Assembly: GCF_054482595.1 (NCBI RefSeq)
Contig: NZ_CM137008.1
Length of the DNA stretch: 64,000 nt
Direction: 5' to 3' (one strand)
Part shown: piece by piece, positions 5,347 to 18,470 of the stretch
Layout: every line of letters starts with the position of its first letter
Numbering within the stretch: position 1 is the stretch's first letter
Notes under the pieces: generated by a model
The model's database searches: none
The model's input: the letters and a program-made list of their open reading frames with translations, nothing else
Told to the model about the DNA's origin: nothing
Translations under genes and position numbers: made by a program

Positions 5347-5597
5347 GTATCTTAACAATGTGATAGCTATGATTGCACCGTTTTAACGTTGTAACCCGTA
5401 TGTAACAGTGAATAATCACTTTCACCGAGGTAATAGCGTCATAACAACAATTAAAGCCGTTTTCTGGAGCGTTACCGGGCATGGAAGAACGAATTTTAAA
5501 AAGTGAGCTTCGGCGTTCAGTAACACTTCATTAACTCTACTGCCCCGCCGAGCATTTATCTCAAGCACTACCCTGCATAAGAAAAACCGGAGATACC

Positions 5598-6656: not shown

Positions 6657-8177
6657 ATGGTCAGCTCAACGACTCCGTCTTCCGGGGAATACTTGTTGGA
6701 AATGAGCGGTATCAACAAGTCCTTTCCTGGTGTTAAGGCACTTGATAACGTTAATTTAAAAGTCCGGCCACATTCTATCCATGCATTAATGGGGGAAAAC
6801 GGCGCAGGAAAATCAACATTATTAAAATGCCTGTTTGGTATTTATCAAAAAGACTCCGGCACCATTTTATTCCAGGGTAAAGAGATCGATTTCCATTCTG
6901 CCAAAGAAGCACTGGAAAATGGTATTTCGATGGTACACCAGGAGTTAAACCTGGTATTACAACGTTCGGTGATGGATAACATGTGGCTGGGGCGATATCC
7001 CACCAAAGGCATGTTTGTCGATCAGGACAAAATGTACCGCGAAACCAAAGCGATTTTTGATGAACTGGATATTGATATCGATCCGCGTGCGCGCGTCGGC
7101 ACATTATCTGTTTCGCAAATGCAGATGATCGAAATCGCCAAAGCGTTTTCCTATAACGCGAAAATTGTAATTATGGATGAACCGACTTCTTCGTTAACCG
7201 AAAAAGAGGTCAATCATCTGTTCACTATTATTCGTAAATTAAAAGAGCGCGGCTGCGGTATTGTTTATATCTCGCATAAAATGGAAGAAATCTTCCAGTT
7301 ATGTGATGAAGTTACCGTATTGCGCGACGGTCAGTGGATCGCCACCGAACCGCTGGCAGGGCTGACGATGGACAAGATTATCGCCATGATGGTTGGGCGT
7401 TCTCTTAACCAGCGTTTTCCTGACAAAGAAAACAAGCCGGGCGAAGTCATCCTCGAGGTGCGTAACCTGACGTCACTGCGCCAGCCGTCGATTCGCGATG
7501 TCTCGTTTGATCTGCATAAAGGGGAGATCCTCGGTATTGCCGGTCTGGTGGGGGCGAAACGTACCGATATTGTTGAGACGTTATTTGGTATTCGCGAGAA
7601 ATCGGCTGGCACCATTACGTTGCACGGCAAAAAGATCAATAACCATAATGCCAATGAAGCCATAAACCACGGATTTGCTCTGGTAACTGAGGAGCGCCGC
7701 TCAACGGGAATTTATGCCTATCTGGATATCGGTTTTAACTCGTTAATTTCCAATATTCGCAACTACAAAAATAAAGTTGGTTTACTGGATAACTCGCGGA
7801 TGAAAAGCGATACCCAGTGGGTGATTGATTCGATGCGGGTAAAAACACCGGGGCATCGGACGCAAATTGGTTCGCTCTCAGGTGGTAATCAGCAAAAGGT
7901 GATTATTGGGCGCTGGCTACTAACGCAACCGGAAATATTAATGCTCGATGAACCGACGCGCGGTATTGATGTCGGGGCGAAGTTTGAGATCTATCAGTTA
8001 ATTGCCGAACTGGCGAAGAAAGGCAAAGGGATTATTATTATCTCCTCTGAAATGCCTGAGTTGTTAGGGATAACAGACCGTATTCTGGTCATGAGCAATG
8101 GTCTCGTTTCCGGAATTGTCGACACAAAAACAACAACGCAAAACGAAATTCTGCGTCTTGCGTCTTTGCACCTTTAA
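6657..8177 (+). CDS. mglA: Galactose/methyl-galactoside ABC transporter ATP-binding protein (duplicated ABC domains)
   Basis: 506-aa ORF with two Walker A motifs (GENGAGKST, and a second ABC half); recognised as MglA. Confidence 0.95.
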
Positions 8178-8192
8178 GATTAGGGGCTTCCC

Positions 8193-9203
8193 ATGAGTGC
8201 GTTAAATAAGAAAAGTTTTCTTACTTACCTGAAAGAGGGCGGTATTTACGTCGTTCTTTTAGTTTTGCTGGCGATTATTATTTTCCAGGACCCAACATTT
8301 TTAAGTCTGTTGAACTTAAGTAATATTCTCACCCAGTCATCGGTGCGTATTATTATCGCGCTCGGTGTGGCAGGGTTAATTGTCACCCAGGGGACCGACC
8401 TTTCTGCGGGGCGTCAAGTAGGGCTGGCGGCAGTGGTGGCAGCGACATTATTGCAGTCCATGGATAACGCCAACAAAGTGTTCCCGGAAATGGCGACGAT
8501 GCCGATTGCGCTGGTTATTCTGATTGTCTGTGCCATTGGTGCGGTGATCGGTTTGATCAACGGTCTGATTATCGCTTATCTCAACGTGACGCCGTTCATT
8601 ACCACGCTCGGCACGATGATCATCGTCTATGGCATCAACTCGCTCTATTACGACTTTGTCGGGGCGTCGCCAATTTCTGGTTTTGACAGTGGCTTCTCTA
8701 CCTTTGCTCAGGGCTTTGTCGCGTTGGGGAGTTTCCGTCTCTCTTACATCACTTTCTACGCGTTGATTGCGGTGGCGTTCGTCTGGGTGTTGTGGAACAA
8801 AACCCGCTTCGGTAAGAACATTTTTGCCATTGGCGGTAACCCGGAAGCGGCAAAAGTATCTGGTGTCAATGTCGGCCTGAACCTGCTGATGATCTACGCG
8901 TTGTCTGGCGTGTTCTATGCCTTTGGCGGGATGTTAGAAGCCGGACGTATCGGCTCTGCCACCAACAACCTCGGCTTTATGTATGAGCTGGATGCTATCG
9001 CGGCGTGCGTGGTAGGCGGTGTATCGTTCAGCGGCGGTGTGGGGACGGTGATTGGTGTGGTTACCGGGGTAATTATTTTTACCGTCATCAACTATGGCCT
9101 GACGTATATCGGCGTAAACCCATACTGGCAGTACATCATCAAAGGGGCGATTATTATCTTCGCCGTGGCGCTGGATTCACTGAAATACGCGCGTAAGAAG
9201 TGA
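8193..9203 (+). CDS. mglC: Galactose/methyl-galactoside ABC transporter permease
   Basis: 336-aa hydrophobic ORF following mglA; recognised as MglC. Confidence 0.95.
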   Translation: MSALNKKSFLTYLKEGGIYVVLLVLLAIIIFQDPTFLSLLNLSNILTQSSVRIIIALGVAGLIVTQGTDLSAGRQVGLAAVVAATLLQSMDNANKVFPEMATMPIALVILIVCAIGAVIGLINGLIIAYLNVTPFITTLGTMIIVYGINSLYYDFVGASPISGFDSGFSTFAQGFVALGSFRLSYITFYALIAVAFVWVLWNKTRFGKNIFAIGGNPEAAKVSGVNVGLNLLMIYALSGVFYAFGGMLEAGRIGSATNNLGFMYELDAIAACVVGGVSFSGGVGTVIGVVTGVIIFTVINYGLTYIGVNPYWQYIIKGAIIIFAVALDSLKYARKK

Positions 9204-15388: not shown

Positions 15389-16339
15389 ATGCGTGTGTTA
15401 CTGGCACCGATGGAGGGTGTGCTTGACTCTCTGGTGCGTGAATTGCTGACCGAAGTTAACGACTACGATCTGTGCATCACCGAGTTTGTCCGCGTGGTGG
15501 ATCAACTGCTGCCGGTAAAAGTCTTTCATCGCATTTGCCCTGAGTTACAAAACGCCAGCCGGACACCATCCGGTACGCTGGTGCGCGTTCAGTTGTTAGG
15601 TCAGTTCCCACAATGGCTGGCAGAGAACGCCGCCCGTGCGGTGGAGTTAGGTTCCTGGGGCGTGGATCTCAATTGCGGCTGCCCGTCGAAAACGGTTAAC
15701 GGTAGCGGCGGCGGGGCGACGTTACTCAAAGATCCTGAACTCATCTACCAGGGGGCAAAAGCGATGCGTGAAGCTGTACCGGCGCATTTGCCCGTCAGCG
15801 TGAAAGTGCGTCTGGGCTGGGACAGCGGTGAGAAGAAATTTGAAATCGCCGATGCGGTTCAACAGGCTGGTGCTACGGAGCTGGTGGTGCATGGACGGAC
15901 AAAAGAGCAGGGTTACCGCGCGGAGCATATTGACTGGCAGGCGATTGGTGAGATTCGCCAGCGGCTGAATATTCCGGTGATTGCCAACGGTGAAATCTGG
16001 GACTGGCAGAGCGCGCAACAATGCATGGCGATCAGCGGCTGCGACGCAGTGATGATTGGTCGCGGGGCGCTCAATATTCCCAACCTGAGCCGGGTGGTAA
16101 AATATAACGAACCGCGAATGCCGTGGCCGGAGGTGGTTGCTTTGCTGCAAAAATATACCCGTCTGGAAAAGCAGGGCGATACCGGGTTATATCACGTAGC
16201 GCGGATTAAACAGTGGTTGAGTTATTTGCGTAAAGAATACGATGAAGCAACGGAATTATTTCAGCATGTTCGGGTGTTGAATAATTCCCATGATATTGCA
16301 AGGGCTATTCAGGCAATTGATATCGATAAGCTGCGATAA
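15389..16339 (+). CDS. dusC: tRNA-dihydrouridine(16) synthase
   Basis: ATG at 15389 gives the 316-aa [14 protein letters not shown]… Dus-family TIM-barrel protein; track ORF starts upstream. Confidence 0.9.
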
Positions 16340-16450
16340 TAGTGGAATCGCAGTTTATCAGAGACAATGAATCGCTTATTCAGCTTCATCATCTTGTTGC
16401 GCTCCTTTCATGAGCTAAGCCACATATTGCCACTGGCGCAAGGAGCGCGC

Positions 16451-16640
16451 AGGGGGAGGACAATCGCCTCCTCCCCCTGCACCCCCGGGCTCTGGCGAAC
16501 AAAATCGCCGCTGCGCGGTACCTTCAGCTTATCCCCTTCGGCTACCGGGTCGGGCGCGAGGTAACGTCCTTGTAAGACGCGCCCTCAGCCCACATCCATG
16601 TGGGCTGCCCCGGCCTTCGGGGAACGCTTCAGCGATTTTG
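16451..16640. repeat. Cluster of GC-rich perfect palindromes in dusC-yohP intergenic region
   Basis: cagggggagga-N8-tcctccccctg (11-bp arms), ggcgcg-N19-cgcgcc, cagcccacat-cc-atgtgggctg (10-bp arms) and ccccg-gcctt-cgggg, all read directly; not a canonical REP or ERIC sequence. Confidence 0.4.
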
Positions 16641-16726
16641 ACGCCACCAACACCGGAGCTGTTTGCAAATCAAGTACACAAAATATCTAGTTCCTGACCT
16701 GACAACTTATATGCCATATCTGATTT

Positions 16727-16810
16727 TTAAAATATCATCTTAAATACGCCAGTCACCACCAGTAGCCCAATCAGGAAAATAATCAATACAGCCCAGAGTA
16801 TAATTTTCAT
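16727..16810 (-). CDS. yohP: 27-aa small membrane protein YohP (MKIILWAVLIIFLIGLLVVTGVFKMIF)
   Basis: Not in ORF track (below length cutoff); found by reverse-complement reading; sequence recognised as YohP. Confidence 0.8.
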   Translation of the reverse strand: MKIILWAVLIIFLIGLLVVTGVFKMIF

Positions 16811-17033: not shown

Positions 17034-18470
17034 ATGAATCGTGATTCCTTTTATCCAGCCATCGCCTGTTTTCCGCTGTTACTGATGCTGGCCGGGTGTG
17101 CGCCTATGCATGAAACCCGCCAGGCGTTAAGCCAGCAAACGCCCGCTGCACAAGTTGACACCGCATTACCCACGGCGCTGAAAAATGGTTGGCCAGACAG
17201 CCAATGGTGGCTGGAGTATCACGATAATCAACTCACTTCATTAATTAACAATGCACTACAGAACGCACCGGATATGCAGGTGGCTGAACAGCGCATTCAG
17301 CTAGCTGAAGCCCAGGCGAAGGCAATTGCCACTCAGGATGGTCCGCAGATCGACTTTTCTGCGGATATGGAGCGGCAAAAAATGTCGGCAGAAGGGCTAA
17401 TGGGGCCGTTTGCTCTGAACGATCCGGCCGCAGGTACGACCGGTCCGTGGTACACCAACGGAACTTTTGGCTTAACGGCGGGCTGGCATCTCGATATCTG
17501 GGGAAAGAATCGGGCGGAGGTTACTGCCCGCCTGGGTACGGTTAAAGCACGGGCGGCGGAACGCGAGCAAACCCGCCAATTGCTGGCTGGCAGCGTAGCC
17601 CGCCTGTACTGGGAGTGGCAAACCCAGGCGGCGTTAAACACTGTCTTGCAGCAAATCGAAAAAGAGCAGAACACCATTATCGCGACCGATCGCCAGCTAT
17701 ATCAGAACGGGATTACTTCTTCAGTTGAAGGTGTGGAAACCGATATTAATGCCAGCAAAACCCGGCAGCAGCTCAACGATGTCGCGGGGAAAATGAAAAT
17801 TATTGAGGCACGGTTAAGCGCACTTACAAATCACCAGACAAAGTCATTGAAGCTTAAACCGGTCGCGTTGCCGAAAGTGGCAAGCCAGCTTCCTGATGAA
17901 CTGGGGTACTCCTTACTGGCCCGGCGGGCAGATTTGCAGGCGGCGCACTGGTACGTTGAGTCATCGCTAAGCACCATTGATGCGGCAAAAGCGGCATTTT
18001 ATCCTGACATCAACCTGATGGCCTTCCTGCAACAGGATGCGTTGCATTTAAGCGATCTGTTCCGTCATTCCGCGCAGCAAATGGGCGTTACGGCAGGCCT
18101 GACGCTACCCATTTTCGATAGTGGTCGTCTTAACGCCAACCTCGATATCGCAAAAGCCGAAAGCAACTTGTCTATCGCCAGCTACAACAAAGCGGTGGTT
18201 GAAGCGGTGAATGACGTGGCGCGGGCAGCCAGTCAGGTTCAGACACTGGCGGAGAAAAACCAGCATCAGGCGCAAATTGAGCGCGATGCCTTGCGTGTGG
18301 TAGGTCTTGCGCAGGCCCGCTTTAACGCGGGCATCATTGCTGGTTCCCGCGTCAGCGAAGCCAGAATCCCCGCGCTGCGTGAGCGGGCCAATGGCCTGTT
18401 ATTGCAAGGGCAGTGGCTGGATGCCTCCATTCAACTCACTGGTGCGTTGGGCGGGGGTTACAAACGCTGA
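17034..18470 (+). CDS. mdtQ: Outer-membrane efflux lipoprotein (OMF / NodT family), intact
   Basis: ATG at 17034 gives a 478-aa protein with lipobox LLMLAGC; track ORF starts upstream. Recalled as a pseudogene in K-12; intact here. Confidence 0.85.
   Translation: MNRDSFYPAIACFPLLLMLAGCAPMHETRQALSQQTPAAQVDTALPTALKNGWPDSQWWLEYHDNQLTSLINNALQNAPDMQVAEQRIQLAEAQAKAIATQDGPQIDFSADMERQKMSAEGLMGPFALNDPAAGTTGPWYTNGTFGLTAGWHLDIWGKNRAEVTARLGTVKARAAEREQTRQLLAGSVARLYWEWQTQAALNTVLQQIEKEQNTIIATDRQLYQNGITSSVEGVETDINASKTRQQLNDVAGKMKIIEARLSALTNHQTKSLKLKPVALPKVASQLPDELGYSLLARRADLQAAHWYVESSLSTIDAAKAAFYPDINLMAFLQQDALHLSDLFRHSAQQMGVTAGLTLPIFDSGRLNANLDIAKAESNLSIASYNKAVVEAVNDVARAASQVQTLAEKNQHQAQIERDALRVVGLAQARFNAGIIAGSRVSEARIPALRERANGLLLQGQWLDASIQLTGALGGGYKR

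Follow-up and report, generated by a model that had tools for sequence, protein, structure and literature searches.

The palindrome cluster between dusC and yohP as a probable inverted natural allele of the Escherichia coli repeat TRIP1c/RRS-dusC

Escherichia coli carries GC-rich intergenic repeats that appear in the literature as TRIP1 and as Replication Risk Sequences (RRS). TRIP1a-c were described by Rudd (1999) and TRIP1a-e were surveyed by Li et al. (Genes 2024, PMC10888264); in K-12 the copies are about 264-273 bp long with 62-65% G+C, and TRIP1c follows the stop codon of dusC (yohI) at a distance of ~43 bp (PMC10888264). The RRS (Pham et al., NAR 2023, PMC10287960; Pham, Wood, Dunbar, Cox, Goodman 2024, PMC10592627; Kusi-Appauh et al., bioRxiv 2026) are represented by RRS-dusC and RRS-lysO, two near-identical GC-rich sequences of 222 bp that lie one on each side of the terminus region (Pham et al.). 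Here, we analyse a cluster of palindromes located between dusC and yohP in a stretch of 64,000 nt from assembly GCF_054482595.1 (contig NZ_CM137008.1), which we refer to as the window and number from its first letter. Judged by its sequence, this cluster corresponds to the E. coli TRIP1c repeat, that is, to RRS-dusC, an already known element. Very probably, it is a replication-gap element in the form of a natural allele that is inverted with respect to K-12, its G-quadruplex (G4) strand being the leading-strand template.

In K-12, the two RRS form an inverted pair roughly equidistant from dif, and one strand of each contains the G4 motif GGGGGTGCAGGGGGCGGCGG, which both loci carry on the lagging-strand template (Pham et al., PMC10287960, PMC10592627). 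The motif stops Pol I, II and IV, and RecA and SSB accumulate over 1.4-2.5 kb beside the RRS, an accumulation that is lost upon deletion of the RRS and gained wherever it is inserted (Pham et al.). In addition, at least one RRS has been reported to be conditionally essential in K-12. According to the mechanism that others have reported for K-12, unwinding of the duplex by the replication fork would allow the element to fold into a G4 and stable hairpins, at which the lagging-strand polymerase would halt before re-priming downstream, and a single-strand gap of hundreds of nucleotides up to ~2 kb would remain and bind SSB and RecA; the RRS authors propose that the gap may serve to relieve topological stress. 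An engineered inverted RRS was viable, gave no RecA/SSB peak in vivo and altered the supercoiling map (Pham et al.). In vitro, the forward orientation caused a gap at essentially every encounter (~698 nt), and the orientation with the G4 on the leading strand still caused lagging-strand gaps, at a frequency of ~66% and with a size of ~328 nt. The sole bacterial precedent cited by the RRS authors is the G4 upstream of pilE in Neisseria gonorrhoeae, which is likewise a G-quadruplex reported to trigger gaps. However, its sequence is unrelated, it serves pilin antigenic variation, and no terminus-flanking repeat is involved.

Identity and orientation of the dusC-yohP element

Megablast and blastn alignments to K-12 place the whole TRIP1c copy, including its extended ends, at positions 16379-16688, with the G4 motif and the GGA loops discussed below on the minus strand. 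The cluster had been described beforehand as extending over ~190 bp; it is real, but the feature to which it belongs is thus larger. The RRS core of 222 bp (16431-16652, minus strand), whose limits were set in this analysis by the near-identity of the two K-12 copies, is in a gap-free alignment 92.7% identical to K-12 RRS-dusC and 92.8% identical to K-12 RRS-lysO. Homology to both K-12 copies, TRIP1c and TRIP1a, was also obtained for the longer element: 16385-16688 matches TRIP1a, located in the aqpZ-lysO spacer, over 304 bp at 91% (megablast), and 16379-16650 matches the copy of the K-12 dusC-yohP spacer over 272 bp at 89%, in inverted orientation (blastn). Identity to reverse TRIP1a alleles is 93.8%, and the extended ends of the reverse TRIP1c of the window are nearer to TRIP1a than to K-12 TRIP1c. 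The location also agrees with that of TRIP1c: the stop codon of dusC is at 16339 and the element starts ~40 bp downstream of it (16379-16385), upstream of mdtQ (yohG). The window copy is therefore TRIP1c by position, its "reverse" orientation class and its copy-number range agree with the survey of Li et al., and there is no essential difference between it and TRIP1. A BLASTN comparison with E. coli genomes, proposed earlier as a check, indicated that the element is not an indel and that there are copies elsewhere. Of 5,426 complete E. coli genomes searched by megablast, 5,425 contain the element, at 17,478 places in total and at 1-8 places (median 3) in each. This multi-copy count is consistent with TRIP1a-e of Li et al. 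(PMC10888264).

The window copy shares with K-12 RRS-dusC the locus, the 222-bp core and the hairpins, but differs from it in having the opposite orientation. A predicted G4-forming motif, GGGGGTGCAGGGGGAGGAGG, is located at 16467-16486 on the minus strand, and compared with its K-12 counterpart it contains two substitutions that spare the G-runs. Both the sequence and the G4Hunter score identify it as a single putative G4-forming motif on one strand, the maximum score being 1.92 for the minus strand of the window and 1.24 for the other strand, compared with 1.84 for K-12. Nearly throughout the 64 kb, the plus strand has a positive GC skew, and it is therefore taken to be the lagging-strand template. 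The G4 motif, being on the opposite strand, is located on the leading-strand template, and the synteny with K-12 agrees with this. Thus, by GC skew as well as by inversion relative to K-12, the G4 strand of the window copy is not the lagging-strand template, and a lagging-strand G4 is a trait of the K-12 arrangement and not of the RRS sequence family.

The orientation polymorphism as such has been published, the counts of Li et al. being 2,952 for the forward and 2,789 for the reverse orientation (PMC10888264). In our comparison, the orientation of the window was found in 1,999 of the 5,426 genomes (~37%), the query being matched over at least 80% of its length. Because K-12 has the element inverted at the same place, this figure reflects orientation rather than presence. 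We also took an evenly spaced sample of 60 rows from the 5,426 genomes, in which 58 dusC-yohP spacers were measured. The span was 694 bp, corresponding to the window allele, in 22 of the 58, and 676 bp, corresponding to the K-12 allele, in most others; the span lies within 674-695 bp for 57 spacers and is 635 bp for the remaining one. All spacers of the sample had one or the other of the two alleles, and an empty dusC-yohP site was not found among these 58 spacers.

The collinear alignment to K-12 breaks off at 16332 and is taken up again at 16725. Between these points only 16379-16650 matches, in inverted orientation and at 89%; the remainder of the spacer can barely be aligned, and identity in the flanks is 98-100%. 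On the basis of this divergence of 11% inside the element, in a spacer that is barely alignable between near-identical flanks, we infer that the two alleles are old haplotypes that do not result from a recent flip. The last few codons of dusC also differ between the spacer alleles (16325-16339, ending in IDIDKLR-stop here, compared with 5439-5445 of the fetched locus L004), which puts the haplotype boundary just inside the gene, at ~16332. A similar two-haplotype pattern was observed for the aqpZ-lysO spacer, and both orientations of the element occur at both spacers, in different strains. A simple in-situ inversion was considered and rejected: there are no flanking inverted repeats, nor does the spacer sequence outside the element correspond to the reverse complement of its K-12 counterpart.

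Strain 2013C-3264 matches the window at 100%, and its aqpZ-lysO spacer is of the K-12 type at 97%. This strain has one forward and one reverse RRS, which are consequently direct repeats, ~1.68 Mb apart across the record origin, whereas RRS-dusC and RRS-lysO are inverted repeats in K-12. Outside the window, the same strain has a gene for an IS621 (IS110-family) transposase located between rhlE and ybiA (fetched locus L120, 5962-6942).

The palindrome cluster sits in the spacer of a convergent gene pair formed by dusC on the left (15389-16339, plus strand) and yohP on the right (16727-16810, minus strand), according to the annotation of the 100%-identical record NZ_CP027544.1. Beyond yohP lies mdtQ (17034-18470, plus strand; annotation of the 100%-matching record). 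These flanking genes are the same as in K-12. It should be noted that mdtQ is intact here and annotated in the matching record as a full-length outer-membrane efflux protein, whereas it is a pseudogene in K-12.

A fold conserved across Enterobacteriaceae

All four inverted repeats that had been noticed in the cluster are present, the arms of the first being 12 bp long rather than 11. This perfect palindrome (16449-16480), with 100% complementary arms GCAGGGGGAGGA (16449-16460) and TCCTCCCCCTGC (16469-16480) separated by an 8-nt spacer, holds half of the G4 motif. Hairpin B (16552-16584) has the arms GGGCGCG (16552-16558) and CGCGCCC (16578-16584), which enclose a short inner stem and a GTCCTT loop (AAGGAC on the minus strand). 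Hairpin A (16586-16607) consists of 10-bp arms, CAGCCCACAT (16586-16595) and ATGTGGGCTG (16598-16607), with a 2-nt spacer, and its loop reads ATCCAT on the plus strand and AUGGAU on the minus strand. It is followed by the short inverted repeat CCCCG (16608-16612)/CGGGG (16618-16622). A long-range closing stem (16501-16639), formed by AAAATCGC (16501-16508) and GCGATTTT (16632-16639), surrounds the two-hairpin domain together with the junction helices 16523/16631, 16526/16628, 16532-36/16619-23 and 16546-49/16609-12. Folding 16434-16656 as single-stranded DNA gave -65.7 kcal/mol (z -6.11) for the plus strand and -69.7 kcal/mol (z -6.33) for the minus strand, and none of 200 dinucleotide shuffles folded as well. 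The clustering of the palindromes is thus beyond chance.

Homologues were collected by means of the invariant 18-mer AAAATCGCCGCTGCGCGG, for which a scan of 100,044 species genomes yielded 110 loci; this biases the collection to copies that keep the 18-mer. Blastn confirmed homologues, often several per genome, in Escherichia, Klebsiella, Raoultella, Enterobacter, Kluyvera, Citrobacter, Pseudescherichia, Atlantibacter, Silvania, Mangrovibacter, Pluralibacter and Entomohabitans. The consensus fold that RNAalifold derived from 56 aligned copies comprises the closing stem, the junction helices, the two adjacent hairpins and a separate G-rich hairpin. On this fold, 96.9% of the cells are paired, compared with 84.8% in shuffles and 36-48% in controls with slid partners; 29 of the 45 pairs have changed on both sides, and the covariation score is 0.354 versus 0.131, with none of 500 shuffles scoring as high. 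Hence, the fold is under selection and is conserved across Enterobacteriaceae.

The covariation extends to the individual helices. In hairpin A (helix 6, 16586-16607), two-sided changes are seen in all five modelled pairs, and 100% of the cells are paired; five of the six pairs of hairpin B (helix 7) covary, as do six of the seven modelled pairs of the palindrome at 16449-16480 (helices 10 and 11). The differences between the window and K-12 RRS-dusC point the same way: ten of the 16 form five compensated base pairs, namely 16457/16472 and 16460/16469 in the palindrome and 16523/16631, 16526/16628 and 16536/16619 in the closing-stem domain. The loops of the hairpins are conserved in sequence, as CATCC(A/C)TG on the plus strand and CA(U/G)GGAUG on the G4 strand. 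Two details of the preliminary description change in the light of this fold. The palindrome with the 2-nt spacer exists, but the spacer is misleading, in that the outer stem covaries, the central CATCC(A/C)TG is kept and the real loop is ~6 nt. Both arms of CCCCG/CGGGG are likewise present, but instead of forming a local hairpin they pair elsewhere in the family-wide fold, the CCCCG arm over a long range (16609-12 with 16546-49) and the adjacent CGGGG in the covarying helix 16619-23/16532-36.

Homology with Klebsiella and Enterobacter begins near 16434, and the left extension of the element (16385-16430) was carried by the alignments only in Escherichia and a few close relatives. A further inverted repeat is found here, in which GCGCTCCTT (16399-16407) pairs with AAGGAGCGC (16440-16448). 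On the minus strand, 16385-16448 ends in the conserved motif AAAGGAGCG-N5-9-ATG, the Shine-Dalgarno-like part of which can pair with GCGCTCCTT. A small-protein or toxin-antitoxin gene starting at this motif was considered; the open reading frames (ORFs) that follow the ATG on the minus strand are unrelated among the copies and have 3-12 codons, and there is probably no gene. Nor do we consider the 65-amino-acid ORF at 16367-16564, which runs through the repeat, to be a gene.

Replication gaps, dispersal and a possible RNA

The suggestion that the cluster acts as a DNA structure rather than as an ordinary RNA hairpin fits the role of DNA secondary structure reported by Pham et al. If the mechanism described for K-12 applies here, the window copy should trigger gaps that are rarer and smaller, via the weaker structure of the C-rich strand, as expected from the published engineered inversions and single-molecule work. 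Several observations weigh against an interpretation as a replication-gap element, which we nevertheless hold with high confidence. First, the inverted engineered RRS gave no RecA/SSB peak in vivo, and gap formation by the window allele may be weak. Second, the share of genomes with the window orientation (~37%; 1,999 of 5,426), the 22 of 58 spacers and the counts of Li et al. (2,952 forward, 2,789 reverse) are not easily reconciled with strong selection to have the G4 of the dusC copy on the lagging strand. Third, when local GC skew was tallied for 60 family copies, negative skew fell on the G4-sense strand in 38 of the 59 informative copies (21 opposite), and in 25 of the 33 for which |skew| is at least 0.02 (8 opposite), local skew being a noisy proxy and the copies non-independent; a family-wide rule of a lagging-strand G4 is not supported by this evidence. 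Fourth, the G4 potential is high across the Escherichia-Klebsiella-Enterobacter group, but only 0.84-0.92 in the Pluralibacter copies, which retain the hairpin fold. Finally, both hairpin loops are conserved in sequence, and a model in which any stable structure blocks the polymerase leaves that unexplained.

An alternative that we regard as possible, and hold tentatively, is that the element belongs to a dispersed, possibly once-mobile family of intergenic repeats (REP- or MITE-like) that is kept by its own spread and by recombination, gaps being a by-product of the hairpins. It overlaps with the interpretation as a replication-gap element and does not exclude it. Its copy numbers are those of a repeat: besides the 1-8 places in E. 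coli genomes, there are 13 places in one K. pneumoniae chromosome, and the fetched loci include at least 12 copies in Pluralibacter gergoviae and 9 in Entomohabitans, as well as tandem and inverted pairs (L008, L062, L087). The copies are mostly located at gene 3' ends (convergent 16, co-directional 28, divergent 3), and none of the fetched copies outside Escherichia adjoins dusC, lysO or aqpZ. A tblastn search of the fetched loci for DusC, MdtQ, AqpZ and LysO neighbours outside Escherichia found none, which is weak evidence as many flanks are short. The occurrence of both orientations at both E. coli loci, and the differences between the dusC-yohP alleles across the whole spacer (element 89%, flanks 98-100% identical), can also be read in this way. 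The idea that the cluster could be a recombination site was right, TRIP1a x TRIP1c inversions of ~1.3 Mb being documented (Li et al. 2024, PMC10888264).

On the other hand, neither terminal inverted repeats nor a target-site duplication was seen, no associated transposase was identified, and an alignment of eight flanked Entomohabitans copies did not reveal the ends of a mobile element, as homology runs on for more than 130 bp on both sides. None of the sampled E. coli spacers is empty, and the reported conditional essentiality of at least one RRS in K-12 also argues against this alternative. An origin from a phage or plasmid was rejected, as there was no match in 50,697 phage records and several of the plasmid matches are to records that are really multi-megabase chromosomes. 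The PLSDB "plasmid" records CP125156.1 (5.37 Mb), NZ_CP134663.1 (4.9 Mb) and others are evidently chromosomes or pieces of chromosomes, and apparent plasmid matches to chromosomal elements therefore need checking. Plasmid pEC16-AU-EG1 (243 kb, strain EC16; L003, 2905-3060) has a partial copy of TRIP1b together with the chromosomal neighbours putA, putP and efeUOB, and represents a chromosomal segment that has moved onto a plasmid.

Some of the fetched loci show how copies are arranged. Klebsiella carries many more copies than E. coli, and in K. pneumoniae two tandem copies have starts 437 bp apart (L008, 1564-2222). In Citrobacter koseri, opposed copies at 7727-7912 and 8018-8156 lie beside the gene of the small RNA (sRNA) glmY (8574-8722, 147.8 bits; L087, 7727-8722). 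The copies of Entomohabitans teleogrylli (L062, 10420-11216; L064-L069) are nested in a longer repeat, with more than 130 bp of common sequence upstream and, downstream, tandem-like units of roughly 37 nt, GAACGGAAT..CC..CAGG..AAAAAT.ACCACAGC.

The known E. coli families REP/BIME and ERIC/IRU are likewise GC-rich palindromic intergenic repeats, which occupy gene 3' ends and can extrude as hairpins. The REP consensus is about 35 bp and the ERIC consensus about 127 bp, with hundreds of copies per genome. In contrast, at 222-310 bp and with 1-8 copies per genome, the window element is considerably longer and much less numerous; it adopts a complex multi-helix fold instead of a single hairpin, and its sequence presumably matches neither consensus. 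The statement that the cluster is neither REP nor ERIC thus stands, and no repeat feature is annotated here in the K-12 RefSeq record. For one BIME family, binding of DNA gyrase has been reported (Pham et al., introduction).

The conservation of the loops brings in a second family. TwoAYGGAY (RF01731; Weinberg et al. 2010) is an Rfam motif with a like architecture, in which a long closing stem is formed around two adjacent hairpins with loops A-N-GGA-Y. A scan against Rfam, suggested at the outset, gave an end-to-end alignment of TwoAYGGAY with 16502-16641 on the minus strand, at 28.4 bits (E 0.05) below the gathering score of 43, the rest being miRNA and snoRNA noise. TwoAYGGAY is the top Rfam match of the window and of both K-12 copies (28.4, 30.9 and 30.6 bits), over the full model and on the G4/GGA strand, and all three E. 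coli copies miss the threshold. In contrast, six relatives from Pluralibacter and Entomohabitans exceed it with 43.2-53.4 bits, and four of these overlap the shared 18-mer AAAATCGCCGCTGCGCGG. The best of these matches (53.4 bits; L067, 1230-1295, minus strand) is a second two-hairpin module located ~400 bp from the copy detected by blast and in the opposite orientation, and the family is therefore larger than the sample based on the 18-mer. In the window, loop A (AUGGAU) fits AYGGAY and a P1-like stem is present, whereas loop B, AAGGAC here and AGGGAU in K-12, has a purine at its second position. The window copy also differs from TwoAYGGAY in being GC-rich, compared with an AT-rich Rfam consensus, and in its extra G-rich hairpin. 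A multi-copy habit is common to both. The original TwoAYGGAY alignment includes several copies from one genome, NC_008709.1, which we take to be that of Psychromonas ingrahamii.

With considerable reserve, we suggest that RRS/TRIP1, rather than being a pair of G4 elements confined to Escherichia, could be a diverged branch of the multi-copy family of structured repeats that Rfam models as TwoAYGGAY. Selection would then keep the multi-helix fold with the two GGA hairpins and not the G4 or the orientation relative to the fork. The family would have a partner specific for both structure and sequence, which might be CsrA bound to a transcript or else a protein recognizing extruded loops of single-stranded DNA, and the K-12 gaps would be only one manifestation. 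Among the papers naming TwoAYGGAY in the library that was searched, we found none on RRS or TRIP1; the RRS paper mentions no Rfam, CsrA or sRNA, and a literature search tying CsrA to the dusC locus returned nothing relevant. Nor did we find a publication of the covariation, of the compensated differences with K-12 or of the Rfam link.

It is unlikely that the element itself encodes, or belongs to, a structured RNA of the TwoAYGGAY type on the minus strand, located here in the 3' untranslated region of yohP, whose GGA-loop hairpins (ACAUGGAUGU, ACAAGGACGU) could bind CsrA. The top-ranking full-length Rfam matches on the GGA strand, the six relatives above the gathering score, the conserved loops with covarying stems and the proposal that TwoAYGGAY is a CsrA-binding sRNA (PMC4333381) are in favor of such an RNA. 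However, the E. coli copies are under the Rfam threshold, and the element has no promoter-like or terminator-like site of its own: as had been noticed, no hairpin of the element is followed by a U-tract, none is followed by a terminator-like site, and a promoter consensus was not found within it, the sole promoter-like match (16711-16738) being outside the element and at shuffle expectation. The element occurs in either sense with respect to genes (same as the upstream gene 33, opposite 26; between co-directional genes, C-sense 17 and GGA-sense 11), both orientations are common at one locus, and effects at the DNA level have been demonstrated experimentally in the RRS papers. A strand test that compares G-U with A-C pairs depends on the pair set used. 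Minus-strand G-U exceeds A-C by 28 to 6 on the pairs predicted from both strands, but the test is flat on the union of pairs (94 versus 82), and the single-strand predictions give 94:25 and 28:63. The evidence does not favor a dedicated RNA, and the earlier idea of an sRNA finds no support in the promoter and terminator searches, the orientation relative to genes or the Rfam score.

A site-specific invertible switch, in which a phase-variation-like inversion flips the element in place, seems very improbable. Both orientations do occur among strains at the dusC-yohP and aqpZ-lysO spacers, but the alleles are 11% apart inside the element, with a barely alignable spacer between near-identical flanks, no flanking inverted repeats bound the inverted block, no invertase gene adjoins the element, and the allele spans are discrete (694 and 676 bp), apparently tracking the strain background. 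An insertion specific to this strain, and thus an indel relative to K-12, as had been suggested, can practically be dismissed: the match to the query reaches at least 80% of its length in only 1,999 of the 5,426 genomes, but in K-12 the same place is occupied by the inverted element, and none of the 58 sampled spacers is empty. In summary, the ideas of a strain-specific insertion and of an sRNA are not supported, and those of a recombination site and a DNA structure were right in spirit.

Implications for the RRS and TwoAYGGAY families

The palindrome cluster is a rediscovery of a published element and adds nothing new to the catalogue. The window nevertheless provides a concrete natural example of a reversed dusC copy, such as approximately one-third of E. 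coli genomes have, and in the matching strain the lysO copy is not reversed. Such strains are ready-made tests of the role that orientation plays in the proposed function as a "topological relief valve". The covariation of the fold and the recognition of relatives by the TwoAYGGAY model are of interest for work on the RRS as well as on an orphan Rfam motif: either a supposed RNA motif is really an element that acts at the DNA level, or the RRS has an RNA side.

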